Below the pieces are notes generated by a model that saw only the letters and a program-made list of their open reading frames with translations, did no database searches and had not been told where the DNA came from. A DNA stretch of 25,202 bases from an uncultured virus (IMG/VR IMGVR_UViG_3300028025_000094) (lineage: Duplodnaviria; Heunggongvirae; Uroviricota; Caudoviricetes). Position 1 is the first letter of the stretch; each line of letters starts with the position of its first letter. Of this stretch, positions 4,160 through 25,202 are shown piece after piece. Made by a program: the position numbers and the translations under genes. Location of the stretch: IMG/VR virus record IMGVR_UViG_3300028025_000094; one strand, written 5' to 3'.

Positions 4160-4184
4160 ACACACATAGACTCAAAGAACTCCC

Positions 4185-8584: not shown

Positions 8585-9121
8585 ATGGCAAATCTCACAT
8601 TTTCCAACAAAGGCATCCCAATGGGACGCAACAAGTCAGTCGCAGTAAACGCAAACTCCCATTGGAGTGCAGAGGAAGACAACTTCCTTCGCATGGCAGC
8701 TGCCCAGAACATGACAACCACTTTGGTTGCTTCTAAATTAGGTCGTACCCCAGCATCTGTTTACACCCGTAAATGGCAATTGGACATTCAGAACGACAAG
8801 GCAATGCCTAGAATCAAAGCACCCAAGACTGCTAAGGTAGTTAGAACAAAGACTGCTCAGGCAGTTAAAGTTCCAAAAGGAGTTCAGTTATTTCAATTGG
8901 AATCAGGCATTCCAGTTCCATCAAAAGGTGGCAACGAAGTACTTAAGAACCAAATTCGTTCCACATTCAATCGCATGGAAATTGGTAACTCATTTGTGAT
9001 TAACAAAGAAGCACTTAACTCAACAGTGTACATTGCTAAGAACGAATTTGGAGCCTACAGAATTAAAACAAGCGCTACCACTCCTGATAAAAAATTCTTT
9101 AGAATTTTCAGGATAGCTTAA
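8585..9121 (+). CDS. putative DNA-binding protein (N-terminal Myb/GcrA-like HTH, basic linker, C-terminal ESGIPVP...MEIGNSF domain)
   Basis: WSAEEDNFLR...VASKLGRTPASVYTR motif; Lys-rich; promoter 8513. Confidence 0.7.
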   Translation: MANLTFSNKGIPMGRNKSVAVNANSHWSAEEDNFLRMAAAQNMTTTLVASKLGRTPASVYTRKWQLDIQNDKAMPRIKAPKTAKVVRTKTAQAVKVPKGVQLFQLESGIPVPSKGGNEVLKNQIRSTFNRMEIGNSFVINKEALNSTVYIAKNEFGAYRIKTSATTPDKKFFRIFRIA

Positions 9122-10466: not shown

Positions 10467-10569
10467 TAAGAAGTACGAAAACTATGAGAGACAGAATACC
10501 GTTAAGGGTTGGATCAAACATATCTATCTTGTGTTACTTTCTCTTATAGTTAAACCTCCCTATAAATAA
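10444..10569 (+). CDS. small hypothetical protein (not in ORF track)
   Basis: MKNHDYYNKKYENYERQNTVKGWIKHIYLVLLSLIVKPPYK. Confidence 0.5.
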   Translation: MKNHDYYNKKYENYERQNTVKGWIKHIYLVLLSLIVKPPYK

Positions 10570-10604
10570 AGACCGTGTGTGTTGAGATTCTTTTAGAATC
10601 TCGG

Positions 10605-10631
10605 AGACCAGCAGCAATGCTGGTCTTTTTT
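10605..10631 (+). terminator. intrinsic terminator
   Basis: AGACCAGCA-GCAA-TGCTGGTCT-TTTTT, preceded by hairpin GAGATTC..GAATCTC. Confidence 0.9.
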
Positions 10632-10635
10632 GCGT

Positions 10636-10668
10636 AGGGGGATATGGGAAGGACCCCGCACGCGTACG
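10636..10668 (+). repeat. Element B copy 1 (33-bp G-rich element)
   Basis: AGGGGGATATGGGAAGGACCCCGCACGCGTACG. Confidence 0.9.
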
Positions 10669-10702
10669 TGGATACATATAGACAAATACGTCTATAACAC
10701 AC

Positions 10703-11203
10703 ATGAGCAACTTATATTTCAATCTAGGAAGTATTCTATCAGAGGAAGAATGTGATAACCTTGCACTGGAGGTTTTTGAACACCTCGAAAAAGGATCGGT
10801 GATTGCAGAAAGAGATACCCGATATTACAAAAACTCATTCGGTGGATCCACCCCTGGATCTTGGGAATGCCTAAAAAGGTTTACACCCTTAGTAATAGAA
10901 AAGAGCGGCAGGAATCTAAAGCCGGCTAATCCTTATTGTCGTATTTACAATAATGAATCAACTCTTAATCCACATAAAGATCGTGAGGGCTTGGATTGGA
11001 CCATTTCGGTTTGTCTATTTACTAATCTCAAACATGATTGGCCTTTAATAGTAAAAGGAGAAGAAGGCAATGTCGAATTCCGTACGATCACCGGTGAGGG
11101 CAACCTCGTTGCTGGACGCACGTTGGAACATTGGAGAGAACCTTTGGAGTGTGGGAGTGATGAATACGTGGTTCAGATGTTTCTCCATTGGTCTGAGGAG
11201 TAG
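10703..11203 (+). CDS. 2OG-Fe(II) oxygenase-like protein (prolyl hydroxylase type)
   Basis: YCRIY...L.PHKDR (HxD), TISVCL, HWREPL (distal His), VQMFLHW. Confidence 0.8.
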   Translation: MSNLYFNLGSILSEEECDNLALEVFEHLEKGSVIAERDTRYYKNSFGGSTPGSWECLKRFTPLVIEKSGRNLKPANPYCRIYNNESTLNPHKDREGLDWTISVCLFTNLKHDWPLIVKGEEGNVEFRTITGEGNLVAGRTLEHWREPLECGSDEYVVQMFLHWSEE

Positions 11204-11288
11204 GCGCCCTCACCAACTTTCGCGGTCGTCCCGCGGATGTTTTTTATCCGCATTTTTATTACCAACACCTGATCATTACTTTTGCACC

Positions 11289-11525
11289 ATGATAAACACC
11301 AAATTAGCAATTGTAAGATCAACAATCAACCTTAGAGGACATAGATTTCCTGCAGGAACGGTTGTTAGGGTATGGGAGACTAGTAGTGTCACATCAATTC
11401 AACCCGCAGTATTACCCACACCACTCCATGAAGCGATGTGGTACTTATTCCCCGAGATTCATTTAAAGGACCTTAGAAAGTTAGAGGATCACGAATGTCA
11501 GTTAGTTGATTACGGAATCTACTAG
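11289..11525 (+). CDS. hypothetical protein
   Basis: Start moved to 11289 (MINTKL), after promoter 11251. Confidence 0.7.
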   Translation: MINTKLAIVRSTINLRGHRFPAGTVVRVWETSSVTSIQPAVLPTPLHEAMWYLFPEIHLKDLRKLEDHECQLVDYGIY

Positions 11526-11577
11526 CATTTTTTTCTAGCGAGGTATAGTATTACTTTTACCTCATAAAACACACGAC

Positions 11578-11790
11578 ATGAAAAAAGAAGCACTAGAACT
11601 AGTTCGTAAAATCTATCAAAGTCTTAAATGGGATCTCATGTCTCAGAAAGACCTTGAAGAGGTATTTAACGCAGCGAAAACACAAGCAAAATTTCTTTGT
11701 GAAAAATTAACAGAAGAGAACAAGGACAGACAAGAGAAGTATGAGATGCTTCTTTCCGAGATTGAAAAAATAAAATTCCAAATGGTATGA
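11578..11790 (+). CDS. hypothetical protein
   Basis: Promoter 11526, AAACACACGAC leader. Confidence 0.85.
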   Translation: MKKEALELVRKIYQSLKWDLMSQKDLEEVFNAAKTQAKFLCEKLTEENKDRQEKYEMLLSEIEKIKFQMV

Positions 11791-12014
11791 GTGATTTCGA
11801 AAAGGCCAGGATGTTCGGTCTAATAGACATCCCTTATGGACAAAGATGTTTCCGCCCATTCATCGATAAGTATAATCCATATAGCATCGAAACTAACGGT
11901 CAGCCTGTTAGAGCAATGTGGCAAGGTAATAACATCATAGTTGATTTTGAAGATGGAGAAACCAGAATTTACAGTACTCTAAGTCCTGACGGATATTATA
12001 GAGTATCTAAATAA
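11787..12014 (+). CDS. hypothetical protein
   Basis: ATGA-coupled 75-aa ORF. Confidence 0.8.
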   Translation: MSDFEKARMFGLIDIPYGQRCFRPFIDKYNPYSIETNGQPVRAMWQGNNIIVDFEDGETRIYSTLSPDGYYRVSK

Positions 12015-12021
12015 AAATTTT

Positions 12022-12195
12022 ATGACCCTTCCTATTATCAGTGCTTCCCTTGCAATATTAGTTCTTGTGATTTCTCTTGTTATTTCGGGTAAAGAAACCT
12101 TGAAACTAAAGTGCCGTAACAGGCTATTATGTAGAGAAAATCACAAACTCAGAATCAAATTAAAGGAGCATGAAGACGGTACAAAAAGCAAATGA
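12022..12195 (+). CDS. small TM plus coiled-coil protein (not in ORF track)
   Basis: MTLPIISASLAILVLVISLVISGKETLKLKCRNRLL..., 57 aa. Confidence 0.65.
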   Translation: MTLPIISASLAILVLVISLVISGKETLKLKCRNRLLCRENHKLRIKLKEHEDGTKSK

Positions 12196-12340
12196 CATCA
12201 AGAGAGTAAAGGATGATGAAGCCGAATTAATGGTTAAGAATCGTGGATACAAATTCGTTCCAAAAAGTGTTTGGAAAGAAGCTACACGTCCAGTGAAACA
12301 AACCAAAGAGAAGGAAGTAAAAGAGAATGAGACAACTTAG
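12170..12340 (+). CDS. small hypothetical phage protein (not in ORF track)
   Basis: MKTVQKANDIKRVKDDEAELMVKNRGYKFVPKSVWKE..., 56 aa. Confidence 0.7.
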   Translation: MKTVQKANDIKRVKDDEAELMVKNRGYKFVPKSVWKEATRPVKQTKEKEVKENETT

Positions 12341-12434
12341 TTATAACAATATTTACAACCCGAAAACAGAACCATATTGGTTCAAAATGTTTAAGGAATA
12401 TAAGAGCTTCACAGTAGGATGGGTCACCATCTAA
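12327..12434 (+). CDS. small hypothetical protein (not in ORF track)
   Basis: MRQLSYNNIYNPKTEPYWFKMFKEYKSFTVGWVTI. Confidence 0.45.
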   Translation: MRQLSYNNIYNPKTEPYWFKMFKEYKSFTVGWVTI

Positions 12435-12527
12435 AAATGAAGGGTAATTTGCTTTTACGAATGAGGATTCTTTCAGCAAAAATTACCGAATGTGAATTTA
12501 GTCGTGTGAATTCACTTTCAAAAAACT

Positions 12528-12556
12528 CCCAAGCTATAATTAGCTTGGGTTTTTTT
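12528..12556 (+). terminator. intrinsic terminator
   Basis: CCCAAGCTA-TAAT-TAGCTTGGG-TTTTTTT. Confidence 0.9.
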
Positions 12557-12621
12557 ATGCCTCTCATTTTTTATCCGCGCGGAAAATACATACTTTTACC
12601 TTATAATCAAAAACACACGAC

Positions 12622-12948
12622 ATGAACACACAACAATTCAATGACCAAGATTTTCGCACAAGTGCAACTGAAACTGTTAATGCTTTCTTTGAAGGTTTTA
12701 CATATCCTTCACGAGAAGATTTTAATGATTCACAGATTAGCCATATTACTGATATTGTAGCTTCCATCTACATGACTCAGCATGTATATCGTATCGGTGG
12801 AGGATTCGTTCAATCAATCCTGGAAGATAAATTAGGAGCAGCCTTTTCCAGAGCAGATTCCACAATCGTTAAAGCAATTCGTATTATGGTTTATGCTAGG
12901 GATTACGGACAGGTTAAAAAGTTCAAACCTTCATTTGAAACAATCTAA
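12622..12948 (+). CDS. hypothetical protein
   Basis: Promoter 12565; GGGFVQSI...AFSRAD motif. Confidence 0.85.
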   Translation: MNTQQFNDQDFRTSATETVNAFFEGFTYPSREDFNDSQISHITDIVASIYMTQHVYRIGGGFVQSILEDKLGAAFSRADSTIVKAIRIMVYARDYGQVKKFKPSFETI

Positions 12949-12994
12949 ATTTGGATAAGTATAAGTAATATTATTCACCATTAGATTCAATTGT

Positions 12995-13192
12995 ATGAAC
13001 CTTGAACCGGAACAACAAGAAATATTTAATAACATCTTAGATTTGGTTTACACCTTAAAGAAGGAGGAAGACATCGAAAAGAAAACTCAGATTCAACACG
13101 TAATAGAATCCGAAAAGAATAAGCTCATGAAAAGTATGCCCTTTCGAGATTATATTTCTTTCATGAGAGAAGCATCTCCTTTATTTATATAA
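12995..13192 (+). CDS. hypothetical protein (probable paralog of 15070..15282)
   Basis: EQ..IF...LD ... SM....Y..F.......F pattern. Confidence 0.75.
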   Translation: MNLEPEQQEIFNNILDLVYTLKKEEDIEKKTQIQHVIESEKNKLMKSMPFRDYISFMREASPLFI

Positions 13193-13227
13193 CTCATTTC
13201 GCTGACTCCCCCTAGTTAGCAGGAATC

Positions 13228-13253
13228 GCCCTACCAGCAATGGAGGGCTTTTT
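13228..13253 (+). terminator. intrinsic terminator
   Basis: GCCCT(A)CCA-GCAA-TGGAGGGC-TTTTT. Confidence 0.75.
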
Positions 13254-13338
13254 CGTGGGCTAAGGTTTTCGATTCTTGACGGTCGAAAAACACCACGAGG
13301 GCGCCCCGACCTTTGTGCATATGGCTTTGCATTTAAGT

Positions 13339-13371
13339 AGGGGGATATGGGAAGGACCCCGCACGCGTACG
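13339..13371 (+). repeat. Element B copy 2
   Basis: Identical to 10636-10668. Confidence 0.9.
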
Positions 13372-13441
13372 GGGGTAAATCGCGATACATTTTTATTAAC
13401 CGAGGAAATTCTTTATTTTTATCCTATAAAAGAAATACAAT

Positions 13442-13825
13442 ATGGAATTAACTCATTGGTTTTACGGATTAGCAGATTGTCACGGCGTAGAATCGTTCGT
13501 ACATGATATAGACGATGCTTTAGCATCTCTATTTTATAGCGATGATGATAAGAAAGAAAAGAATTCTAGTCAGTTTGCGATGTGTCTACGTGCTCAGGCC
13601 AATCAACAAAGACACGCCGTTGTTTACCGGGCAGCAATCCCACAATCACATGTTGAGATAATTGAGGGGTTTATTAAAGGAGGAGATTACGAGGCTGCAC
13701 TGAAAGAAATCAAGGATTGCTCAACAGAGATAATGTTAGGTACCTATGGCACCACAAAGGCAGCAGCAGAGAAGAATTGGAAAATGATTCCAAACCCAGA
13801 TTTGGATCCTTATTACACAAAATAA
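13442..13825 (+). CDS. hypothetical protein
   Basis: Promoter 13388; GLADCHGVESF, RAQANQQRHAV. Confidence 0.85.
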   Translation: MELTHWFYGLADCHGVESFVHDIDDALASLFYSDDDKKEKNSSQFAMCLRAQANQQRHAVVYRAAIPQSHVEIIEGFIKGGDYEAALKEIKDCSTEIMLGTYGTTKAAAEKNWKMIPNPDLDPYYTK

Positions 13826-13829
13826 AAAC

Positions 13830-14483
13830 ATGGGATATCTAAAACACGCGACAAGTCACAAGTTGGATGCAGCAGCATTCAAGACGTTTATCTTTCAGGG
13901 TAAAGCTCTATTTACGCTTGAGAACAAGGAGAAAGGAACCTACATTACGTTTAAGGTTCAAAAGCTAAAAAGAAAACGTGACCAACCGGAAGAGACTAGA
14001 CTCTTTGATGTTCATGTGCGTGCATTGAATGACCAGTATCAGGGTTTAAAATACATTGGACGAGTTGATAGAAAGATGAAGACCTTTAAACCTTCGGGGT
14101 ATGTTGATAACGACCATGTTGGAATTCAAACCATGAATTGGCTAATAAGAAGTTGGGGTGATTTGGAAAGGTTGGAAGGAGGAGGAAAACTAGGCATGTA
14201 CCATCAAGGTATTTGTTGCAAATGTGGATTACCACTAACTGTTCCTGAGAGTATTGAAAACGGAATTGGTCCTCAATGTAAAAAGTATAGAGAAGCCAAA
14301 TCCCTAAAGTTCATGGAAGAAATTGGTATTCTAGTACCAGGATTAAGTTATAACGCACAGGTCATTCACGCTGTTGAGAATCGTCCAGATTGCTTTGAAA
14401 AAATATACATACCAGAAACAGTGCGTCGTTCAAACGAATGGATTAAAGACCTTGACCTATTTAGTTCTTATGGTCTTTGGTAG
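13830..14483 (+). CDS. DUF6011-like zinc-binding protein
   Basis: GKALFTL..., CCKCGLPLTVPESIENGIGPQC signature. Confidence 0.8.
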   Translation: MGYLKHATSHKLDAAAFKTFIFQGKALFTLENKEKGTYITFKVQKLKRKRDQPEETRLFDVHVRALNDQYQGLKYIGRVDRKMKTFKPSGYVDNDHVGIQTMNWLIRSWGDLERLEGGGKLGMYHQGICCKCGLPLTVPESIENGIGPQCKKYREAKSLKFMEEIGILVPGLSYNAQVIHAVENRPDCFEKIYIPETVRRSNEWIKDLDLFSSYGLW

Positions 14484-14514
14484 AGTAAGATAATTTTTGT
14501 TTATTTTTAGTTTT

Positions 14515-14545
14515 AAACCCTAGACTTATAGTCTGGGGTTTTTTT
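14515..14545 (+). terminator. intrinsic terminator
   Basis: AAACCCTAGACT-TAT-AGTCTGGGGTTTTTTT. Confidence 0.85.
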
Positions 14546-14775
14546 ATGCCCTAGGATTAGTGGTGTACGACAGGCGTAAAACACGTGAGGGCGCCCTGAC
14601 GCTTGGTAATGTTCCACATGTTCCTGATGTTCCCGATGTACCATTGTCGAGGCACCCTCACCGAGGTACATCTGGTACCTCTGGTACTTCTGGCACCTTG
14701 GGGATAACATTTTTTATTCCCGCGGGATTGTTATAAATTCGAGGTATAATTTACTAACAAATAAAAAACCTAAAA

Positions 14776-14994
14776 ATGAAACCGCAAACCACAAACCCAA
14801 ATTTCGATTTTTTCAGAGAACTAAACGGTAGAGAAATGATGCACTGGATAGGAACACCTTGCTTTGTCAAGGGGGTATCCAAAAAAGATGAAGACCGGGT
14901 TACCATAGTTACCATTGATGGTTACACCTATGATGAAATCAGATCTAATGATTTGGAAACTATGGATCCGACTGAGATAGCCTTATTTGTTTAA
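14776..14994 (+). CDS. hypothetical protein
   Basis: Promoter 14708. Confidence 0.8.
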   Translation: MKPQTTNPNFDFFRELNGREMMHWIGTPCFVKGVSKKDEDRVTIVTIDGYTYDEIRSNDLETMDPTEIALFV

Positions 14995-15069
14995 ATTCCA
15001 GAAGTGCGGGGAAACATTTTTAAATCCCGCACTTCTTTTATACATTTACATCATAAAATAAATCAAACG

Positions 15070-15282
15070 ATGACGCACGAACAATCCCTAATCTTCAGGA
15101 AGGTATTAGATACCAACTGGGAAGTAAAAGAATTAAAAGAATCTGGAAAGTGGCAGGAAGCTCTTGAAAAAGTTAAAGAGCATAACTCTCATGTCGAAGA
15201 ATTAAAATCCGCAATGGGAGCAGGTGCGTATGATAACTTTATAAACATGGGACGTAAAATGTTCGCACCAAAATCAGATTAA
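15070..15282 (+). CDS. hypothetical protein
   Basis: Start moved to 15070 (MTHEQ), after promoter 15015. Confidence 0.85.
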   Translation: MTHEQSLIFRKVLDTNWEVKELKESGKWQEALEKVKEHNSHVEELKSAMGAGAYDNFINMGRKMFAPKSD

Positions 15283-15283
15283 T

Positions 15284-15499
15284 ATGTTAAGATTTTCAGA
15301 CGGAATCAGTATTGACACCTCAGGAGAGCCAAGGGTTCTTAGGTTGAATGATGGATACTATGCGGTAGGTAAAGGAATTTTAATTCCAGTTGATAATCTA
15401 CAATCGGCGGAGTTTATGGTTCAGAGAATGGAAAGATGGGAACCGAGTGAGAACATTATTAATTCTCGAGGGGAAGTGTTAAATTTGCAAAATAAATAA
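15284..15499 (+). CDS. hypothetical protein
   Basis: LRFSDG.SIDTSG..R.....DG.Y.VG.G.LIPV; operon spacing. Confidence 0.8.
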   Translation: MLRFSDGISIDTSGEPRVLRLNDGYYAVGKGILIPVDNLQSAEFMVQRMERWEPSENIINSRGEVLNLQNK

Positions 15500-15509
15500 A
15501 TAAAAAGAA

Positions 15510-15797
15510 ATGCCAAGAAGACCTAAAAAGGGAAAATCAGCTTCGTTGCTGTTTAGAAATTTACTAAAAGATTTAAACCCATTGGAGTTAACTGTTCTAA
15601 GAGAAAGAGTCTTACACATCTGCGAAATTACAAAGCAGGATATCGTAATAAATCCTAAGAAATACGAGAGACATATTATCTCTCCGGATTTAATTGTAAA
15701 TTGTATGGACAAGTGTATCACAGGTTTAGGATACGAAGAAAAACCAAAGGTTAAAAAAGAATTTAAAATTTCACAACCAGAAGTTGTTGAGATATAA
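15510..15797 (+). CDS. hypothetical protein
   Basis: 95-aa ORF before a terminator. Confidence 0.8.
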   Translation: MPRRPKKGKSASLLFRNLLKDLNPLELTVLRERVLHICEITKQDIVINPKKYERHIISPDLIVNCMDKCITGLGYEEKPKVKKEFKISQPEVVEI

Positions 15798-15827
15798 AGA
15801 AGGTTAGTGTTAGTAAGTATACAGGGA

Positions 15828-15852
15828 AGGTCAGATTAGTCTGGCCTTTTTT
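15828..15852 (+). terminator. intrinsic terminator
   Basis: AGGTCAGA-TTAG-TCTGGCCT-TTTTT. Confidence 0.85.
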
Positions 15853-16002
15853 GTGTGTGGAGGAATCCAAATAGAAACTGTGGTACATCGTCAGGGCGCC
15901 CTCACCACTAAGTGTGCAGTCTATCTGCATTCATGAATACTTTGAGGACATTTTTTTATTACGCCGCGATTACATATATTTGTATTCTAAAATAAACACG
16001 AC

Positions 16003-16197
16003 ATGACACAAGAAAAAAAACCACAGTATGTAGTTATCCTTAATTTCGAATCAGGCCAAGTAGATATTATGATTCTAGATAACAAACCAGAAGGCATGGA
16101 TGACGAAGAGTTTATCGAAGGTACTCTTGATTATTCCTTATCCAATTGTGAATGGATGGTTACCACTAATCCTTTTCCTAATCCATTAAACTTCTAA
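16003..16197 (+). CDS. hypothetical protein
   Basis: Promoter 15949, AAACACGAC leader. Confidence 0.85.
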   Translation: MTQEKKPQYVVILNFESGQVDIMILDNKPEGMDDEEFIEGTLDYSLSNCEWMVTTNPFPNPLNF

Positions 16198-16199
16198 TC

Positions 16200-16667
16200 A
16201 TGCAACTAAATTTTAAATTAGGTAACAACATATTCCTACAAGGTGATAAGGTTATCAGTTATGAAACACACGTTGCTGATATCAAAGATGGCCACATCCA
16301 AGCAAGAGGTAAGTATTCTAGGACAACCAGTAAACAGATAAGCAAGGTAGCATCCACATTGAAATTAAAATTACACTCCTCTGATAAGAGAGAGGATTTT
16401 TGGAAACATGAATATGGAGCTAAGTTCTCAATCGACAACTGTCTAAGTGAAAAGATATCCGAATTCATTATTGGTTATATGAGGGAGAAGGAATTGGATT
16501 ACCTTAAATGCAGCCACGAAGATATGTTACCTATGCTAATCACCATACCTAATGTTGGACCTAAAGATTGGGGGATACTTAAAGAGTACTTAAATCTACC
16601 ACAGGATACACCAACCCCCCAGCAACAGGAGAAGGATACGGCAAAGGCACTGGCTATTTTATTCTAG
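16200..16667 (+). CDS. hypothetical phage protein (SY.T.VA...YS.TTSKQ N-terminal domain)
   Basis: 155-aa ORF; stop codon overlaps element B. Confidence 0.85.
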   Translation: MQLNFKLGNNIFLQGDKVISYETHVADIKDGHIQARGKYSRTTSKQISKVASTLKLKLHSSDKREDFWKHEYGAKFSIDNCLSEKISEFIIGYMREKELDYLKCSHEDMLPMLITIPNVGPKDWGILKEYLNLPQDTPTPQQQEKDTAKALAILF

Positions 16668-16698
16668 GGGGATGGGGGAAGGACCCCGCACGCGTACG
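16666..16698 (+). repeat. Element B copy 3
   Basis: AGGGGGATGGGGGAAGGACCCCGCACGCGTACG. Confidence 0.9.
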
Positions 16699-16754
16699 AG
16701 GGAAACATTTTAATTTTCCGCAATATAATCCTATATTTACTTTCTCAAATAAAT

Positions 16755-17036
16755 ATGTATATGTCAATCCAATTAGATGAGGTAGAATTATCAGATGTCT
16801 CAGTAGAAGACTTCATTGAATCCAAATTAATCGTGTATAACGATGATTTTAACACGTTTGACTGGGTCATAACTTGTTTATGTAATTACATTAAGCATAC
16901 ACCAGAACAAGCAGAACAGTGCGCTTTATTGATTCATACGAAAGGTAAATGCCAAGTTAAATCAGGAAGTAAAACCAAATTACAACCCATGAAAGAAGCC
17001 TTAACCGATGCTGGGTTATCTGCAGTCATAGAATAA
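16755..17036 (+). CDS. clpS: ATP-dependent Clp protease adaptor ClpS
   Basis: LIVYNDDFNTFDWVI..L......EQAEQCALLIHTKGKCQVK.G......M...L...GLSA, a Bacteroidetes-style ClpS. Confidence 0.9.
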   Translation: MYMSIQLDEVELSDVSVEDFIESKLIVYNDDFNTFDWVITCLCNYIKHTPEQAEQCALLIHTKGKCQVKSGSKTKLQPMKEALTDAGLSAVIE

Positions 17037-17071
17037 AGAACATCTGCCAAACGGGGAAGTAAAACCTTGCC

Positions 17072-17103
17072 AAACCTGGAACCAAAAGTTCTAGGTTTTT
17101 TTT
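17072..17103 (+). terminator. intrinsic terminator
   Basis: AAACCTGGAAC-CAAAA-GTTCTAGGTTTTTTTT. Confidence 0.85.
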
Positions 17104-17335
17104 GTGGGGAGGATTCACGGGAGAAGAATCGGATGTGTCTTTGTCGGGGCGCCCTCGGAATCGGATACCTCGGAGCTCCAGCAGAAACCCCGGAGGAGAA
17201 ATCATCCGAGGGTGCCCTCACGCCGATTCACAGACCGAACATAGCTAGGTTTTATGTGGAAAAGAAATTTATTCAAAACATTTTTTTATTTCGAGGATTA
17301 TTCATATATTTGCCTTGTAACTAAAATAAATAACC

Positions 17336-17605
17336 ATGTTAACAAACACGACAATCGAATCATCAACCACCCTAACACCTGATGATTTAAAAGAAAAATT
17401 AAGATTAGGGGCAATCAACTTTTCTTTCCAAAAGAAAGATGGTACAATCAGAAACGCTTACGGAACTTTGCTAATGAGCGAAATTCCAGATGACCAACAT
17501 CCTAAGTCCGGGTCAGAAGCATCCCCCAAGATTATTCCATTTTTTGATTTGGAAAAGTCAGCTTGGAGAAGTGTTGGAATAGAACAACCAATTTTCATCC
17601 AATAA
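17336..17605 (+). CDS. DUF2693 / WYL_2-like SH3 beta-barrel protein
   Basis: F.FQKKDGTIRNAYGTL ... FFDLEKSAWRS. Confidence 0.8.
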   Translation: MLTNTTIESSTTLTPDDLKEKLRLGAINFSFQKKDGTIRNAYGTLLMSEIPDDQHPKSGSEASPKIIPFFDLEKSAWRSVGIEQPIFIQ

Positions 17606-17619
17606 AAAATTATCAATCC

Positions 17620-17651
17620 AAAAAGTCCTAGATTTTCTAGGACTTTTTTTT
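17620..17651 (+). terminator. intrinsic terminator
   Basis: AAAAGTCCTAG-ATTTT-CTAGGACTTTTTTTT. Confidence 0.9.
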
Positions 17652-17818
17652 GTGGTCCAAATCTTTGGAAAGAGAAAACGCCATGCTAAAACGGGTCGGG
17701 GCACCCTCACTGATGTTAGCATGTTTTTTGTGACAGTAATCTTCAAATTTATTTTCGAGGCATTTTTTTATTACGCCTCTTTTTCTTATATTTGCTTTAT
17801 ACTTAAACACACACTCGC

Positions 17819-18124
17819 ATGAACATTAAAAAATTATCAGAAGAAAAAACGATTAACGGTACTTCATTCTATGACGATGTTTTCAGTGCATCTCCACAGC
17901 AATTGATTGATGCCTTTGGACCTCCTTCCTATTCTAACAATGATGGAGAAGGTAAAGTAAACATGGAATGGGAACTGGAACTTGGAGAAGGAATCGTTTT
18001 CACAATTTATGATTGGAAGGAATACCGCAAACTTTCCATGGACGAGGAAATTGAATGGCACATTGGGGCTCACGACCAATCTTCATCAACTCAGGCTATT
18101 CTAGAATTGCTTGAACACTTCTAA
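17819..18124 (+). CDS. conserved phage hypothetical protein (KV..EW...FTIYDWK...WHIG)
   Basis: Promoter 17761; motif series recalled from phage hypotheticals. Confidence 0.85.
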   Translation: MNIKKLSEEKTINGTSFYDDVFSASPQQLIDAFGPPSYSNNDGEGKVNMEWELELGEGIVFTIYDWKEYRKLSMDEEIEWHIGAHDQSSSTQAILELLEHF

Positions 18125-18140
18125 ATCCCAAACAGATTTA

Positions 18141-18169
18141 AAAGCCCGGACTTAGGTCTGGGTTTTTTT
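18141..18169 (+). terminator. intrinsic terminator
   Basis: AAAGCCCGGAC-TTAG-GTCTGGGTTTTTTT. Confidence 0.85.
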
Positions 18170-18256
18170 GTGGGTAAAGATTCCGGGTGGACCGAAGTAC
18201 ACGTGGGTAAAGGCGCCCTCACGATTCTCAGAATCGAATTTGAGATACATATGAAT

Positions 18257-18478
18257 ATGAAACACATTAAACTCTTTGAAGACTTTGGAGCATTGGAGGT
18301 TGAACCTTATCAAGTTCCCACTCAAATACAATGTAATAAATGTGGCTGGAATTGGAATTCCACCCAATCATCAGAGGAAGACCTTTATGTCTGTCACAAG
18401 TGTGGAGCAGATAATAAGGTTTTCTATGAGGGAGAACCTGATGATGAAGAATCAACTTCTGACTTAGAAGGGGCATAG
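18257..18478 (+). CDS. MKH-leader zinc-ribbon protein
   Basis: Start moved to MKHIKLFEDF; CNKCGW...CHKCG; GATACATA 18244. Confidence 0.8.
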   Translation: MKHIKLFEDFGALEVEPYQVPTQIQCNKCGWNWNSTQSSEEDLYVCHKCGADNKVFYEGEPDDEESTSDLEGA

Positions 18479-18509
18479 GGGGATGGGGGAAGGACCCCGC
18501 ACGCGTACG
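18477..18509 (+). repeat. Element B copy 4
   Basis: Identical to 16666-16698; overlaps a stop codon. Confidence 0.9.
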
Positions 18510-18650
18510 AGAGAAAAATCACAAGATATAAGTTAGAGAGAGCTGGTGAGGGTGCCGCCACACCGATAATAATCCGAAGCATCCGAATTCTTACATTTTT
18601 TTATTTCGAGGATTTATTCTATATTTGCCTTGTACTTAAACACACACGAC

Positions 18651-18833
18651 ATGAAAAGAAAAATCATTGATGCAGGAATCAAATTCCTAGAAGAAAGAGG
18701 AATATTTAACCAGGAACATTATCTCGTTTCTCTCCAAGGACCCACCTTTATTTTCACCTCTGTTGGTTCTACCATGTTAAATGATGAAATAAAATCAGGG
18801 ATACAGGAAAGAGGAATACTAATTCTGGCTTAA
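18651..18833 (+). CDS. hypothetical protein
   Basis: Start moved to 18651 after promoter 18594 and a CACACACGAC leader. Confidence 0.8.
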   Translation: MKRKIIDAGIKFLEERGIFNQEHYLVSLQGPTFIFTSVGSTMLNDEIKSGIQERGILILA

Positions 18834-18856
18834 ATCCATTCACCTTACAGAATCTT

Positions 18857-18888
18857 AAAAATCTAGACAAATTTGTCTAGATTTTTTT
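18857..18888 (+). terminator. intrinsic terminator
   Basis: AAAAATCTAGACA-AATT-TGTCTAGATTTTTTT. Confidence 0.9.
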
Positions 18889-19002
18889 GTGAGTGTTATA
18901 ATAGTTGGACAGTAGTTAAACTATGAGTGGGCGCCCTCACTCCGCATAGCGACAGATTTGCTCTTCGGAGTAAGATATATAAATCACAAAATAACTCAAA
19001 GA

Positions 19003-19275
19003 ATGAAACACATTAAAAAATTCGGTGAACTCACAGAAAGTTTCTGGGATTATAACTTCGGTAAACCCACAGTTAAAGATGCAGCTCATGATTCATTAAG
19101 GGGTCAAGGATTCAGTCACACTAAAAAAGACGATGCTGGAACTCAGACAATGGTCTTTAATGGTCAAGAATTTTATCCCGATCAAATCCAATATGCTGAT
19201 TATGGAGATGTTGGAGAAATACCAAGAATAGAAGGAGATAAACTAATAGTTGCTAATCCAGCTTGGTCTATGTAA
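19003..19275 (+). CDS. MKH-leader hypothetical protein
   Basis: MKHIKKFGELTES; GATATATA 18974. Confidence 0.8.
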   Translation: MKHIKKFGELTESFWDYNFGKPTVKDAAHDSLRGQGFSHTKKDDAGTQTMVFNGQEFYPDQIQYADYGDVGEIPRIEGDKLIVANPAWSM

Positions 19276-19294
19276 CTTTCACATAACCTTTTTT

Positions 19295-19324
19295 AAAAAG
19301 CCAAACCTAGTGTTTGGTTTTTTT
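19295..19324 (+). terminator. intrinsic terminator
   Basis: AAAAGCCAAAC-CTAGT-GTTTGGTTTTTTT. Confidence 0.85.
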
Positions 19325-19539
19325 GTGGCCTGCCTCGAAAGTGGCTGAGGGCGCCCCGACGGAAAGAACCACACTTTTCCCTTTTTTGGGTTTTAATCCC
19401 GGAGGTGCCCTCACCCCGATTCACATCCGAAACTTTCCTTGGATAATTTGAAACATTTCCTCGAAACATTTTTTATCTTCGGGGATTTATTTTATATTTG
19501 CCTTGTACTTAAATCCACAAACCTCAAAAAATTAAAAAA

Positions 19540-19944
19540 ATGGTAAACTTTCAAGTATCCCTCAGAGAACAAATCGAAGCATTTGAATTGGAAAAAAGAA
19601 TCATTGGCGATTATGAACATTGCTCCGGATTCTATGATTGGTTCTGTTCGGACAAAGCCTTACCCGGCAAAGCAATGAATCTTATGCCCAAGGTTATTAA
19701 ATTCGCTAAAGCCAAAGGAATAGATTTGGATAGACATTACGTTTGGTTCAAGAACAACTGTCCTTTTAACGGACCATTATACGATGATTTTCGTATTGCC
19801 TCATTAGAAACCGGAGATACAGTCTTCACTGTTACGCCTAAGTGTGGACACACAGGTTTAGCAGAAGTCTACGGCCAAGAGAATCTTTGGAACGGACCGA
19901 TTCATCAGGCTTCAACTTGGTCACAACTAGCAAGCACATTTTAG
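19540..19944 (+). CDS. conserved phage hypothetical protein (YDWFC...YVWFKNNCP..GPLYDDFRI)
   Basis: Promoter 19467; 134 aa. Confidence 0.85.
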   Translation: MVNFQVSLREQIEAFELEKRIIGDYEHCSGFYDWFCSDKALPGKAMNLMPKVIKFAKAKGIDLDRHYVWFKNNCPFNGPLYDDFRIASLETGDTVFTVTPKCGHTGLAEVYGQENLWNGPIHQASTWSQLASTF

Positions 19945-19962
19945 AACCTTCAATAAAAATGT

Positions 19963-20118
19963 ATGAGTATCCAAGAATTAAAAGAACAAATGCAGGAAGA
20001 CCTAATAAGTCTGTTGGAAGGAATAGGCATCGAAGATGCACTAGCCCCAGAGGATTGGGAAAACCTAAAGAATGAAGTTGGCGAAATAGTTATCTCCAAC
20101 ATCAATAGATTAAACTAA
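19963..20118 (+). CDS. small acidic protein (not in ORF track)
   Basis: MSIQELKEQMQEDLISLLEGIGIEDALAPEDWENLKNEVGEIVISNINRLN; ends just before a terminator. Confidence 0.75.
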   Translation: MSIQELKEQMQEDLISLLEGIGIEDALAPEDWENLKNEVGEIVISNINRLN

Positions 20119-20121
20119 TCG

Positions 20122-20155
20122 AAAATGGCCTGGGATTTTATCTCAGGCCATTTTT
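20122..20155 (+). terminator. intrinsic terminator
   Basis: AAAATGGCCTGGGAT..ATCTCAGGCCATTTTT. Confidence 0.85.
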
Positions 20156-20363
20156 GTGCGCGGTGGAAAAGCATTTACGCTGACGGAATCGAGGTGAGGG
20201 TGCCGCCACATCGAGATTTTATTTGGGGTCGGATTTGGAAATCAACCGAGGGTGCCCTCACCTGAAGACCTGGAAAAATTCTTTTTTGGGGTCGGATTCG
20301 GAAATCATCCGAGGGTGCCCTCACCTCGATAACCTCGGTCTCATTTCTGATAGGATCTGCATC

Positions 20364-20396
20364 AGGGGGATGGTGGGAGGACCCCGCGCTCGCGAA
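20364..20396 (+). repeat. Element B copy 5 (variant)
   Basis: AGGGGGATGGTGGGAGGACCCCGCGCTCGCGAA. Confidence 0.85.
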
Positions 20397-20457
20397 GGGG
20401 GTTTTCATTTTTATTCCTCGCAGTCTCACATTATATTTGTATTCTAAAACCACACAT

Positions 20458-20748
20458 ATGAAAAGTTATGAAATGTACTCAGCAGCCGGAGATAAGGCCT
20501 GCGAAACACTAGTTAATCGAATCTGCAAAAAGATTCATTCAAACGTTAGGGTCACAAGAGAGGAAATAGCAGGGGAAATCGAGAAGGGACAGATGCTCAT
20601 TGCCCTCATCTATCCAGAAGTTCATGACACTGAACCGCGAGGTCATATTTGTCATGACATAAGTAAGGCATTAAAAGATGCAGGATATGGATTCTTTATA
20701 GATTCATATGTTAATACCTGCGAGGGAGTATATCCGTATTATAGTTAG
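20458..20748 (+). CDS. hypothetical protein
   Basis: Start moved to 20458; MYSAAGDKAC...EVHDTEPR. Confidence 0.85.
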   Translation: MKSYEMYSAAGDKACETLVNRICKKIHSNVRVTREEIAGEIEKGQMLIALIYPEVHDTEPRGHICHDISKALKDAGYGFFIDSYVNTCEGVYPYYS

Positions 20749-20772
20749 ATTTGGGTTAAAGTTTAAAGTGTT

Positions 20773-20803
20773 AAAGGCCCAGGATTTTGTCCTGGGTTTT
20801 TTT
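20773..20803 (+). terminator. intrinsic terminator
   Basis: GGCCCAGGA-TTTTG-TCCTGGGTT-TTTTT. Confidence 0.85.
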
Positions 20804-20998
20804 GTGGGTGTTGGTTAAGGTTAGCTACAGGTAAACAGTGAGAGGCTGCCCCAGCGAAGAAAAAGGACCGGCCTAAAAATCATTAGGGGGTGCCCTCGCA
20901 CAGATTCACATGCAGATTCACATCCAAAAAGAATTCTTAAACATTTTTATTATCCGGGGAAAATCATTACTTTTACCTCATACCAAATAACTAAACAC

Positions 20999-21199
20999 AT
21001 GAGCAAAAGAACAACCTTACTAGTTCCAGTGGAATTCTACATTCCGGATGAAATTCGTTCCCGATTAGATAAGTTAAAAATTTCTCCAGAGATTCAAGAA
21101 GAAGCATTAGCTGATGCGATTTTCACTTATGTACAAGAAAGATTTCTAGTTGATGAAAGAGAAGAGATAATCGAACATGTTAAAAACTGGGAAGAGTAA
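20999..21199 (+). CDS. hypothetical protein
   Basis: Promoter 20942. Confidence 0.85.
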   Translation: MSKRTTLLVPVEFYIPDEIRSRLDKLKISPEIQEEALADAIFTYVQERFLVDEREEIIEHVKNWEE

Positions 21200-21216
21200 T
21201 CTTCCTTCCCCAACAG

Positions 21217-21246
21217 AAAACCTGAGATAATCCCTCAGGTTTTTTT
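21217..21246 (+). terminator. intrinsic terminator
   Basis: AAAACCTGAG-ATAATCC-CTCAGGTTTTTTT. Confidence 0.85.
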
Positions 21247-21442
21247 GTGGGTGTTAGTTAAGGTTAGCTACAGGTAAACAGCGTGAGGACGCCCCAGCGA
21301 GGAAAAAGGACCGGCCTAAAAATCATTAGGGGGTGCCCTCACCCCGATTCACATACGTTTTCACATCCAAAAAGAATTCGGTAACATTTTTTTATTTCGG
21401 GGGAAATCTGTATATTTGCCTTACACTTAAAAACATAACATC

Positions 21443-21871
21443 ATGTCAAAAATCAATCAAATCATTGTCAACCCAGAAATTCCCCAAACCCCTAAGTCGT
21501 CTAAAGAAACTCTTAATTCTCTTAAAAAAGAATTAGAGGTTTTAGGAGGAAAAGTTTTCTTAGGTTTTGTTCACCCAACTCTTTATGGGCCAGTTAGAAA
21601 TCTTAACTTTATTTTAGAAGGACCCAATCCAGAATTCTTAGATAAGTATTTAACAAATCCCCAAAAAGATATTGTAGTTGATGTTTGGAAAGAAACTATG
21701 ATGGCAACTCAACTAATGGTTCTTCCTTGGGAAATGAGTTTAACCTGTGAAATTAATCCTCCCACATTTAAAACAATTAAAGAATCAGAGATTTACATTC
21801 GAAAAAAGTTAGCGGATAATAAACAAAAGAATATTAATGATCCCTTCTTTTATCGAAAAGGAACAATCTAA
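21443..21871 (+). CDS. hypothetical protein
   Basis: Promoter 21385; 142 aa. Confidence 0.85.
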   Translation: MSKINQIIVNPEIPQTPKSSKETLNSLKKELEVLGGKVFLGFVHPTLYGPVRNLNFILEGPNPEFLDKYLTNPQKDIVVDVWKETMMATQLMVLPWEMSLTCEINPPTFKTIKESEIYIRKKLADNKQKNINDPFFYRKGTI

Positions 21872-21879
21872 AAAATCAG

Positions 21880-21911
21880 AAACCCTTAGGAAAATCACCT
21901 AAGGGTTTTTT
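21880..21911 (+). terminator. intrinsic terminator
   Basis: AAACCCTTAGG-AAAATCA-CCTAAGGGTTTTTT. Confidence 0.9.
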
Positions 21912-22100
21912 GTGGGGTTTACTTAAGCTTAACAGTAGCTAAGCGGGGTGAGGACGCCTCGACGAAAAAAAAAGCTAGCCTAAAAAATAGGGAGGCGCCC
22001 TCGCACAAAAAAGCATTGATGCTGATTCTCAGGTTTTGCATCACGAGGTAGCCCTCACGCCGTTTGTCTATGTGATTTGGATATATAAAATAAAAAAGAA

Positions 22101-22484
22101 ATGAAGCACTTAAGATTATACGAAGAGTTTAAAGAAGGACCAATGAGAAAAGAACCTTCTATTTTCCAGAAAATGTACAAAGGAGCTAAAGACTTTATTG
22201 GCATTGAGTCTAGTGAAGATAGAGAGAGATATGAAGACGTAGTTCGCATGATAACCATGAATGATTCTTACGGACTTAAGAAGAGCATTAGAGAAATTAA
22301 ACCGGGTGTGGTTGTAATGTGGTTAAATGACCAGAGTCTAACAATCGATACAGTTACTCCTGAGATTATTTGGAGAGGTAAGGTTTTAGATTTAAATGAT
22401 ACCCAGGAATCAGTAAACTATCTTTACAGTAGAATTAAGGATTACATAAACACTCCTCAGATGACTCAAGGTTTGAGAAGATAA
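22101..22484 (+). CDS. MKH-leader hypothetical protein
   Basis: MKHLRLYEEF, the first 10 aa identical to 2713..3333; GATATATA 22080. Confidence 0.85.
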   Translation: MKHLRLYEEFKEGPMRKEPSIFQKMYKGAKDFIGIESSEDRERYEDVVRMITMNDSYGLKKSIREIKPGVVVMWLNDQSLTIDTVTPEIIWRGKVLDLNDTQESVNYLYSRIKDYINTPQMTQGLRR

Positions 22485-22505
22485 AAATTAGTGTTTCATA
22501 AAAAT

Positions 22506-22535
22506 AAAAACCCAGGCTTAGGTCTGGGTTTTTTT
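22506..22535 (+). terminator. intrinsic terminator
   Basis: AAAACCCAGGC-TTAG-GTCTGGGTTTTTTT. Confidence 0.85.
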
Positions 22536-22641
22536 GTGGGTGGTGCCCTCACCACGATAACCTCGGGTTTCGATTCTTTAACTCACATTTTTATTTGTCG
22601 CGGAAATGATTTACATTAGCCTCATACTAATACACATACAT

Positions 22642-22818
22642 ATGATTCAGTTCAAAAACATTCTGCATTACATTACAAGAGATTCAGTTATCAATCTTCC
22701 TCTTCTGGTACAAATTCGAAGATGTAAGATGGAACAAGAAGGTTTCCAAACAGATAATATTAACTGGGAACATTACACCAGGGTTCTAATAGCTAAACAA
22801 AAAGCTTTAAAAGATTAG
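22642..22818 (+). CDS. hypothetical protein
   Basis: Start moved to 22642 (MIQFKN), after promoter 22586. Confidence 0.75.
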   Translation: MIQFKNILHYITRDSVINLPLLVQIRRCKMEQEGFQTDNINWEHYTRVLIAKQKALKD

Positions 22819-22820
22819 GC

Positions 22821-23039
22821 ATGAGAAAGACCTTTGAGATAGAAAGGATAAAGGCATTCGTTAATGAGCAACTCGCTAACGATCAAAACACCTTGGATGA
22901 AAAGCAAGGTATGATATCCGTGCTGGAACACGTGCTTCTTCGCAGTGATTCTTATCGGGGATTTATGTTTCTGGATGTAGGGGAAGAATCTATTGGACCT
23001 CCTGGTAGTCCGAAGCATGTTAGAAGAAAGTATTTCTAG
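22821..23039 (+). CDS. hypothetical protein
   Basis: MRKTF...VLEHVL....YRGF; operon spacing. Confidence 0.8.
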   Translation: MRKTFEIERIKAFVNEQLANDQNTLDEKQGMISVLEHVLLRSDSYRGFMFLDVGEESIGPPGSPKHVRRKYF

Positions 23040-23057
23040 CAGGAAGGGAGATTAATG

Positions 23058-23084
23058 AGTCTGAGAGCAATCTCAGACTTTTTT
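23058..23084 (+). terminator. intrinsic terminator
   Basis: AGTCTGAGA-GCAA-TCTCAGACT-TTTTT. Confidence 0.9.
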
Positions 23085-23089
23085 GTGTG

Positions 23090-23122
23090 TGGGGGATAGG
23101 GGGAGGACCCCGCGCTCGCGAG
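23090..23122 (+). repeat. Element B copy 6 (variant)
   Basis: TGGGGGATAGGGGGAGGACCCCGCGCTCGCGAG. Confidence 0.85.
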
Positions 23123-23353
23123 AGGGTTTTTAGGGATTTCTTCCTTTTAGAAAGCTTTCTAAATTCTAGTGAGTCCGCCCCAAATCGATTCAACCACTTA
23201 GTAATCAGCATGTTAGAAGAAAGTGTAAAAGATGTACAAATCGGAGAGAGCACCCCCGCAGGTGAGATCTGCAGAATTAACCTCTCATACATTTTATTAC
23301 CTCGGGGAAATCTTGTATATTTGCCTTATAATTAATCACTAAAAATCACGACT

Positions 23354-23533
23354 ATGTTTGAAGAACAAATTTCACAAGTAATTAGAGTATTCCAATCCCT
23401 AGATGGGGTTTCAAAATGGGCATTTACATTTTGGATGGTATGTGCTGCAGCTTTCTATGGCATGTTAGTTTACATTATGGGATTACTTATTAGAGAAGGA
23501 ATACTTAGAATCTCTAGACTCTCTAGAATTTAG
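23354..23533 (+). CDS. small membrane protein, 59 aa (not in ORF track)
   Basis: MFEEQISQVIRVFQSLDGVSKWAFTFWMVCAAAFYGMLVYIMGLLIREG...; promoter 23290. Confidence 0.75.
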   Translation: MFEEQISQVIRVFQSLDGVSKWAFTFWMVCAAAFYGMLVYIMGLLIREGILRISRLSRI

Positions 23534-25110: not shown

Positions 25111-25202
25111 TAAAAAGACCATTATTTAGACCCTAGGGGAGCCTGGGGGGAACGGGGCCTAAAAAGGGCCCTAAAATGGGGGGCTAAAAGGGGGTATTTA
25201 GG

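Follow-up and report, generated by a model that had tools for sequence, protein, structure and literature searches.

Element B is a G-rich motif of 33 nt that recurs six times, always in the same orientation, in a 25,202-nt stretch of DNA from an uncultured virus of the Caudoviricetes (IMG/VR record IMGVR_UViG_3300028025_000094), hereafter the window. A plausible, if still tentative, reading is that Element B is a factor-recognised box marking transcription boundaries inside the terminator/promoter cassettes of a fast-evolving early-gene region, and that these cassettes resemble the promoter early stem-loops (PeSLs) of T4-type phages. A core of about 19 nt is invariant irrespective of pairing, which points to sequence-specific recognition, and the strict polarity of the element, its place at the front of transcription units, and the terminator-like appearance of one of its two types (type II, below) together point to transcription. 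A putative protein, either phage-encoded or a phage-modified host factor, would read the invariant core sequence-specifically, acting on duplex DNA or on the nascent transcript; it would stop or insulate transcription arriving from the upstream unit and set the activity of the downstream unit. As a by-product, the repeated boxes would be places of cassette deletion, duplication, and exchange.

Transcription control in phages of the Bacteroidota, the probable host phylum (below), is almost unexplored, and the available portions of the literature describe hosts with unusual promoters (PMC9723704) and without Shine-Dalgarno sequences (PMC6847099). A core that stays unchanged across diverged freshwater phages would mark a specific contact between a factor and DNA or RNA, and a candidate contact of this kind, with two box alleles, strict polarity, and a place at the borders of transcription units, would offer a handle on early-gene timing.

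Sequence and conservation of Element B

A scan of the window with a 24-nt consensus (at most 3 mismatches) returned exactly six matches, all on the plus strand and starting at positions 10636, 13339, 16666, 18477, 20364, and 23090; the same scan of 100 dinucleotide-preserving shuffles of the window returned none (0/100). The six co-oriented copies put forward in an earlier sequence-only reading of this DNA thus stand, as do its three pairs of subtypes, the members of each pair being identical or nearly so. Copies 1 (10636..10668) and 2 (13339..13371) are identical over 33 nt, as are copies 3 (16666..16698) and 4 (18477..18509), and these two pairs are here termed type I; copies 5 (20364..20396) and 6 (23090..23122) have a second 3' box, GCTCGCGA, in common and constitute type II. 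The GC content of the copies is 0.67 to 0.76, far above the 0.35 to 0.45 of their 200-nt flanks, as had been claimed, and compares with 0.397 for the whole window. The short CG palindromes reported at the 3' ends are likewise present: the type I end, ACGCGTACG, contains ACGCGT and CGTACG, and the type II end contains TCGCGA. All 4 of the ACGCGT sites in the window and 2 of its 4 TCGCGA sites lie inside Element B, and the 111-kb relative described next has 5 and 3 such sites, respectively. A restriction-site reading of this near-confinement was considered, and no mechanism could be attached to it.

The cleanest evidence of selection on the element comes from G001, a 111-kb viral contig (CheckV completeness 33%) that is syntenic with the window at 74.5–86.7% DNA identity, because this relative was found by protein search and not through the motif. 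It carries six copies of Element B on one strand, all at orthologous places, and none in its other ~98 kb. All six retain AGGACCCCGC and the 3' box unchanged and keep their type (type I, ACGCGTACG; type II, GCTCGCGA), while the 5' G-runs and the flanks differ from those of the window. The sequence-only reading had named lack of conservation in relatives as part of what would refute its proposal; that refutation fails, as the element is conserved at every one of the six places in G001.

Scanning with the exact core added two further viral contigs, G002 and G003, with one site each, and a metagenome scan with the same pattern added at least 32 low-GC loci. The resulting collection comprises 46 distinct instances: 22 of G-type I, 9 of G-type II, 13 of C-type II (in which a C-run takes the place of the 5' G-run), and 2 of C-type with another box. 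Across five ortholog groups, the variable alignment columns are 5 of 121 for the core, 35 of 80 for the G-run part, 185 of 300 for the upstream flank, and 27 of 112 and 113 of 358 for the near and the farther downstream sequence, respectively, a contrast that is inflated for the distant ortholog rows, which were found with the exact core pattern and are in that respect partly circular. Further copies in distant contigs that were found with a looser pattern also keep ACCCCGC and the box. The core of Element B, 18–19 nt, is constant while the flanks diverge.

Outside these relatives, the exact 23-nt G-run pattern had 0 loci in IMG/VR, the relatives differing in their G-runs. The core pattern had 95 loci in 185,579 prokaryote species genomes; each of the 80 loci listed held a single match, the titles shown were those of high-GC taxa with no Bacteroidota among them, and the bacterial and archaeal matches are taken as chance. 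A solitary CRISPR (clustered regularly interspaced short palindromic repeats) repeat, akin to an RNA anti-CRISPR, was rejected, as these same matches included no array. In the full-text literature, none of the matches listed for the core string concerned phages, and a search for intergenic motifs of Bacteroidetes jumbo phages yielded nothing relevant among the matches listed. A guide-RNA target was rejected because no other copy of the core is present on either strand of the window or of G001.

Two tandem arrangements (loci L013 and L047; loci L036 and L085) delimit the unit to ~32 nt. Its parts are, in order, (a) a run of G4-5, (b) 2–4 variable bases, (c) a run of G3-5, (d) A(N)GGA, (e) CCCC, (f) GC, and (g) a CG-rich, near-palindromic box that has two main alleles, ACGCGTACG and GCTCGCGA, and two rare forms, GCTCGCAC and GCACGTGA. 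In C-type units the 5' block is CCCCCTCCC, the exact reverse complement of GGGAGGGGG in copies 5 and 6 of G001, and the ends of the unit, ACCCCCT...AGGGGGT, form a 7-nt terminal inverted repeat. The C-type copy of G002 lies ~2.5 kb upstream of a block that is syntenic with G001, and copy 6 of G001, a G-type, lies ~2.8 kb upstream of the same block. Occurrence of the two at about the same relative position indicates that the element tolerates inversion of its 5' tract, parts (d) to (g) being fixed in sequence and orientation. A strand asymmetry extends beyond the six copies: GGACC occurs 26 times on the plus strand of the window against 12.9 expected, and its complement GGTCC 3 times against 10.5 expected.

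These same data bear on the suggestion that the element is prone to form, and acts by forming, a G-quadruplex. Two-tier quadruplex patterns are possible in 27 of the 31 G-type instances. However, they are possible in none of the 15 C-type instances, a whole class, one copy of which stands at about the same relative position as a G-type copy of a related phage, and a canonical three-tier quadruplex (four tracts of at least three G, loops of 1–7 nt) could be drawn for 0 of the 46 instances on the plus strand and for 2 on the minus strand. Moreover, the part of the element that does not vary is the C-run and the CG box and not the G-runs. This part of the sequence-only reading is not supported, and action through a G-quadruplex is considered extremely unlikely.

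Position relative to genes and promoters

In all instances found, Element B is intergenic and co-oriented with the next gene; given a core conserved far above its flanks, the description of Element B as a directional cis-site is supported. A co-oriented open reading frame (ORF) of at least 40 amino acids begins no more than 120 nt downstream in 28 of 32 contexts and no more than 250 nt downstream in 31, the distance being mostly 33–143 nt. The ends of upstream ORFs are scattered, falling within 100 nt in 16 of the 32 contexts and more than 200 nt away in 8. With gene starts close and upstream ends dispersed, the element is associated more with the start of a unit than with the end of the one before it.

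The window is a run of small plus-strand ORFs, and many of these are preceded by a promoter-like repeat of ~50 nt that consists of CATTTT, a TAnnTTT(G/A) box beginning 26 nt past the C of CATTTT, and an ATG 15–27 nt past the box. The box fits the Flavobacterium sigma-A −7 box TAnnTTTG, which the available part of the source places at −12 to −5 (PMC9723704). By inspection, the leaders of window genes lack Shine-Dalgarno sequences, as the accessible text of another source reports for members of the Bacteroidetes (PMC6847099), and the relatives encode a SusC-type outer-membrane protein (CarboxypepD_reg, Plug, and beta-barrel). Based on the sigma-A-like box, the leaders, and the SusC-type protein, the host is probably a member of the Bacteroidota. 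At least 25 sites of the promoter family are present in the window (for example at 5338, 6958, 17279, 18594, 19467, 21385, and 23290), with a central YCGRGG and an A/C-rich leader. The canonical terminators of the window end in TTTTTTTGTGGG, and terminator-like sites number 34 against 13.7 expected. A palindrome of 12–16 nt, GAGGGYGCCCTC (PAL), occurs at ~35 sites (for example at 17208, 20248, 20311, and 21329), mostly between terminator and promoter, and in an array of five copies spaced 50–145 nt apart at the end of the window (24728–25123); it resembles another, much more frequent boundary box or an operator. The usual intergenic order is terminator, PAL, promoter, ORF.

Element B usually abuts the −33 side of such a Bacteroidota sigma-A-type promoter. 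A family promoter starts 25–47 nt past GGACCCC in 27 of 45 distinct contexts, 67 nt past it for the first unit of two tandems, and 102–107 nt past it in 5 contexts, which places the core roughly 45–75 nt upstream of the start site inferred from the position of the −7 box. The promoter adjoins the 33-nt element and is not part of it; in the window, three of the six copies abut one. Copy 1 begins 3 nt past the T-run of a canonical terminator (10606..10633) and ends 34 nt short of the ATG of ORF 10703, an interval that contains no family promoter. Copy 2 lies between a PAL palindrome (13297–13308) and a promoter (13388..13421). ORF 16200–16667 and ORF 18170/18251–18478 stop at the TAG that precedes the G-run in copy 3 and copy 4, respectively; copy 3 is followed by a promoter (16706..16739) and the ClpS-like ORF 16755, and copy 4 by PAL at 18548 and a promoter at 18594. 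Similar to copy 2, copy 5 stands past a PAL (20311) and before a promoter (20406..20441). Copy 6 begins 3 nt past a canonical terminator (23058..23087), and the next family promoter is at 23290. The overlap of two copies with a TAG stop that no hairpin terminator follows had been pointed out from the sequence and is accurate, since no T-run terminator follows copies 3 and 4. Four nearby promoters had also been proposed, of which those at 13388, 16706, and 20406 belong to the window family and that at 10671 does not.

The placement of all copies on one strand could also suit a site of strand-specific nicking, or a signal for DNA translocation or packaging, as in T5, phiKMV-like, and tf-like phages. 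The sites described for those phages are likewise short, conserved, confined to one strand, and spaced at kilobase intervals (PMC3517423, as far as that source is available), and the T5 major-nick consensus given there, R/GCGCRGG, an 8-nt site, occurs twice in the window, both times on the minus strand inside a type II copy. However, this consensus is absent from type I, that is, from four of the six copies, and at least 2 matches were obtained in 10 of 100 shuffles, so that the two matches are weak evidence. The phiKMV nick consensus (at most 3 mismatches) and the tf nick consensus each had 0 matches in the window. Since all genes of the region lie on one strand, the polarity of the copies is uninformative in this regard. 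Element B is also much longer than these nick sites and is tied to gene starts and promoters, a link that, along with the terminator-like 3' arm, has no counterpart in the nick-site descriptions in the available part of PMC3517423. No nickase-like domain was seen among the window proteins. A nick or packaging site is considered very improbable.

Folding, possible boundary function, and related systems

Type II looks like a terminator and type I does not, as judged from predicted pairing. In the predicted type II hairpin, the box is enclosed between (G)GACCCC and its pairing partner, GGGGU(Y)(Y). In copy 5 (20377..20406), GAGGACCCC would pair with GGGGUUUUC across a 12-nt loop (minimum free energy −18.3 kcal/mol, z −0.82), and the T-run continues into the CATTTT of the promoter, so that the predicted fold resembles an intrinsic terminator; a 3' arm with T-run, GAGGGTTTTT, follows copy 6 at 23123..23131. 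TTTT is present within 16 nt past the box in 9 of 9 G-type II instances and past the box in 4 of 22 type I instances, where it was read from the sequences as the promoter's own CATTTT. In minimum-free-energy folds, pairing between CCCC and a G-run on its downstream side is seen in 8 of the 9 G-type II and 10 of the 15 C-type instances, and both arms change together in two variants, GAGAC...GUCUC at locus L081 and GGAC...GUCC at locus L085. The earlier suggestion of a termination signal fits only copies 5 and 6, of type II, with their predicted GC hairpin and their T-run; type I has neither. Type II is in this respect similar to intrinsic (Rho-independent) terminators, with a GC-rich hairpin (GGACCCC...GGGGU) and a T-run, and its arms resemble those of an ordinary terminator at 4208 in the window. 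Unlike such terminators, Element B has a loop and a 5' extension that are invariant in sequence, type I lacks both the T-run and a conserved 3' arm, and two copies lie directly past another terminator.

It is also possible, though rather unlikely, that Element B works as RNA, in which case a hairpin of GGG(G), A(N)GGA, and CCC(C), together with the linear CG-rich box, would be the target of a protein on the nascent transcript. Processive antitermination similar to that at the nut sites of lambda, RNA processing, or protection of 3' ends could result. All variants are able to form a mini-hairpin of 3–5 bp, GGG(G)/CCC(C), with a purine loop that contains A(N)GGA (AGGA, AAGGA, AGAGGA, CUAGGA, or AGGAGA). 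Moreover, the orientation strictly follows the direction of transcription, transcription from an upstream promoter can reach four of the six copies without meeting a canonical terminator, and the abundance of terminators in the window means that antitermination would have work to do. Nonetheless, the stem of 3–5 G:C pairs never varies, hence never covaries, and was partly in the search pattern, and for these reasons the mini-hairpin carries no evidential weight. Copies 1 and 6 lie past a terminator, so little transcript should carry them, and exchange of the G-tract for a C-tract alters the RNA but not the duplex. A comparison with Rfam 15 gave no match at gathering score in the window, and of 17 matches at E≤10 within 10500–23400, none overlapped a copy. 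No CsrA-like protein was detected in the 58 window ORFs scanned or in G001–G003, the latter an absence that is weak because these relatives are genome fragments. Ribozymes, riboswitches, tRNA-like elements, and integron attC sites were rejected on reading the sequences.

Lambda nut sites and related antitermination RNA signals are polar, combine a small GC hairpin that has a purine-rich loop with an adjoining linear conserved box, and lie in an early region full of terminators. Element B is similar in its polarity, in its possible small GC hairpin with a purine-rich loop and linear conserved box, and in its terminator-rich early region. It differs in that it lies upstream of adjacent promoters and not just downstream of them, in its six copies per 12.5 kb, in a hairpin that is weaker and shows no covariation, and in that no N-like protein was identified here.

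Several observations weigh against a boundary box read by a protein factor. No protein that would read the box was identified. The distance to the promoter is neither fixed nor helically phased (25–37, 47, 67, and 102–107 nt), which is awkward for a classical activator site, and in 11 of 45 contexts there is no family promoter within ~170 nt. Element B is present in only 6 of ~30 promoter regions of the window, which indicates that it is not a general cassette part. Single-sequence RNA folds of the element are inconsistent and no better than those of shuffles (z +0.63 to −2.05), a result that also counts against function as RNA, and in type I there is no T-run of its own, the 3' arm is poorly conserved, and CCCC pairs downstream in 10 of 22 instances. 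A second terminator or insulator also seems redundant at copies 1 and 6, directly past canonical terminators. Finally, copy 1 and its orthologs stand before ORF 10703, a conserved gene (PHROG match, E 3.6e-22) without a family promoter, an arrangement easier to reconcile with a positive or promoter role than with insulation.

Copy 1 is best explained if Element B itself serves as a promoter, or is recognised by an RNA polymerase, sigma factor, or activator that the phage specifies, an explanation that is overall judged unlikely. In that event the early region would hold ~6 separately timed units, and the adjoining host-type promoter would be a tandem early promoter, as in the early/middle pairs of T4. 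The polarity, the ~22 nt that are invariant, and the intergenic location, with gene starts more tightly linked to the element than upstream gene ends are, would all be expected of a promoter, as would confinement to a 12.5-kb sub-region and the absence of copies from the rest of G001. Further, there are two alleles of the 3' box, tandem units always pair different alleles, and a G-run is often present past the box, where the start site would lie. Conversely, the sequence is very rich in GC and lacks an A/T-rich segment that could melt, a host-type promoter already stands 25–47 nt downstream in most contexts, and tolerance of an inversion of the 5' G-tract to a C-tract would be unusual for a promoter. 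No match to sigma-70 region 2 (Sigma70_r2) was found in the ~204 kb of G001–G003, an absence that is again weak in genome fragments, and an A-rich, late-promoter-like stretch upstream of ORF 10703 might, as a weak alternative, serve that gene instead. Sigma-54 and extracytoplasmic function (ECF) sigma factor promoter geometries were rejected on reading the sequences.

A wider formulation, judged unlikely, is that a dedicated phage transcription factor or form of polymerase loads at Element B, which would be either a second, GC-rich promoter class or a polar terminator/antiterminator switch. The copies would then define a separately timed regulon of ~6 units within the early region, with the alleles ACGCGTACG and GCTCGCGA representing two specificities and the invertible G5/C5 tract a structural arm.

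For the boundary reading that is preferred here, the closest precedent is the PeSL of T4-type phages, which the available portions of the literature describe as a promoter joined to a polyG/polyC stem-loop that stops transcription coming from upstream; PeSLs are also sites of cassette exchange and mediate insertions and deletions (PMC2839356; PMC4122927). As in those descriptions, the modules here are small, repeated, and intergenic among many small genes of unknown function, the six copies lying among small plus-strand ORFs and just upstream of one of these. In PeSLs a host-type early promoter accompanies a stem-loop with polyG followed by polyC, one stem-loop place described in the accessible part of PMC2839356 being upstream of the −35 box; the contexts here that have a nearby family promoter may be comparable, and the account of the stem-loop as a terminator or attenuator would fit the predicted hairpin of type II. 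Recombination between copies deletes, duplicates, and swaps cassettes in the PeSL system as far as described there (PMC2839356), and here copies are likewise points of insertion, deletion, and exchange between related phages (loci L076, L013/L047, and L082, below). Element B differs in a core of about 19 nt that is invariant beyond any need for pairing, in a type I without a usable terminator hairpin, in its restriction to a minority of promoter regions with separate canonical terminators and PAL alongside, and in a promoter of Bacteroidota and not sigma-70 type. A further difference counts against the comparison: PeSLs are from T4-type phages, and the only hint that this phage might be of T4-type ancestry comes from protein matches. 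Among cultured phages, two window proteins have their nearest matches in T4-like cyanophages and vibriophages, at <60% identity, and no T4 core genes turned up in the fragments of the relatives, in which no search aimed at such genes was made. If Element B proves to be only PeSL-like, the T4-phage concept would be extended to a new host phylum and complemented by a sequence-specific box.

Recombination between copies and neighbouring features

Comparison of the window with its relatives shows that, at the level of sequence, copies of Element B recombine with one another, with deletion, tandem units, and within-genome homogenisation as the results. At locus L076 a junction inside the element links the sequence upstream of copy 3 to that downstream of copy 4, the 1.8 kb between the two copies being lost, and a more distant relative (locus L082) has different genes between copies 3 and 4. 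At the copy 6 site of loci L013 and L047, the type II unit is immediately preceded by an additional type I unit of 33 nt, and two C-type units stand in tandem at loci L036 and L085. Paralogs are more alike than orthologs (copies 1 and 2 and copies 3 and 4 are identical in the window, as are copies 5 and 6 in G001), and copy 3 of G001 has the G-run version of window copy 5. The core together with the promoter (20375–20454) is the only DNA, at ~80% identity, common to the window and otherwise unrelated phage contigs. Element B thereby illustrates, at the resolution of single sites, how regulatory boxes can be breakpoints of cassette loss, duplication, and exchange in the accessory region of a phage.

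The precise extra unit, the tandems, the deletion between two copies, and the homogenisation, along with the 7-nt terminal inverted repeat of C-type units and the occurrence of the element in unrelated gene contexts, would also be expected of a selfish or neutral small repeat. Such a repeat, similar to a repetitive extragenic palindrome (REP) or a miniature inverted-repeat transposable element (MITE), would have no regulatory role, would be kept by gene conversion, and would be only a substrate for recombination. Yet the core is identical in genomes that differ by 15–25% elsewhere and is kept at all six orthologous places, and identity between genomes is not explained by gene conversion within a genome. 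Additionally, position with respect to promoters and gene starts is constrained, no transposase or RAYT-like (REP-associated tyrosine transposase) gene was seen in the window, and no target-site duplication is evident. This explanation is hence regarded as improbable.

The metagenomes that contain the window DNA are from subsurface and lake or other freshwater sites. A megablast search with 14 kb of the window recovered no near relative among 50,697 deposited phage records, and a blastn comparison of copy 5 and its promoter with cultured phages gave only a 33-nt match at chance level, in an unannotated metagenomic phage record. The few protein families recognised in the window include a 2OG-Fe(II)-oxygenase-like protein, DUF6011, ClpS, WYL_2, DUF1737, and a match to a Myb-like regulator, and no tRNA was found in the window with ARAGORN. 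A scan of its 58 ORFs against Pfam and PHROGs detected no nuclease, recombinase, transposase, or CsrA; the only candidate nucleic-acid binders are the Myb-like regulator match (ORF 8585–9121, PHROG 323), the WYL_2 Sm-like protein (ORF 17336), and zinc ribbons (including ORFs 5880 and 18170). The ClpS adaptor homologue (16755–17036, Pfam E 3e-17) is directly downstream of copy 3, and the WYL_2 protein, an Sm-like beta-barrel (17336–17605, E 1.3e-17), is in the unit that follows that of ClpS.

Other features of the region were observed. A 1.2-kb GC-rich stretch at 4160–5340, with no plus-strand ORF of at least 50 amino acids until its 3' edge, contains several PAL and 14 co-oriented CCCCG motifs (36 in the whole window against ~6.6 expected), CCCCG being also the centre of Element B; this stretch could be an origin or a regulatory region. 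At least seven ORFs (1785, 2242 on the minus strand, 2698, 3275, 18251, 19003, and 22101) have the N-terminal sequence MKH(I/L)(K/R)L(F/Y)E in common, as well as the DNA around the start codon, and three of these (18251, 19003, and 22101) are preceded by a terminator and PAL without a family promoter and may have a different promoter class. A 203-nt direct repeat (20795–20997 and 21238–21440; 84% identity, 443 nt apart), with a third partial copy at 21898–21988, spans a terminator, PAL, and promoter in each copy, and the ending of relatives' contigs just upstream of copy 6 may be due to this repeat. Between copies 2 and 3, G001 has an extra cassette of ~1.7 kb with an N6/N4 DNA methylase (L250:9037-9981) that is absent from the window. 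Genes of the relatives also include a Tad3 (anti-Thoeris) homologue in G002 (L254:3964-4539) and a weak match to TROVE (Ro60-like) in G001 (L247:8964-10592), and many of their accessory genes are of glycosyltransferase, radical-SAM, lectin, and SusC-like type.

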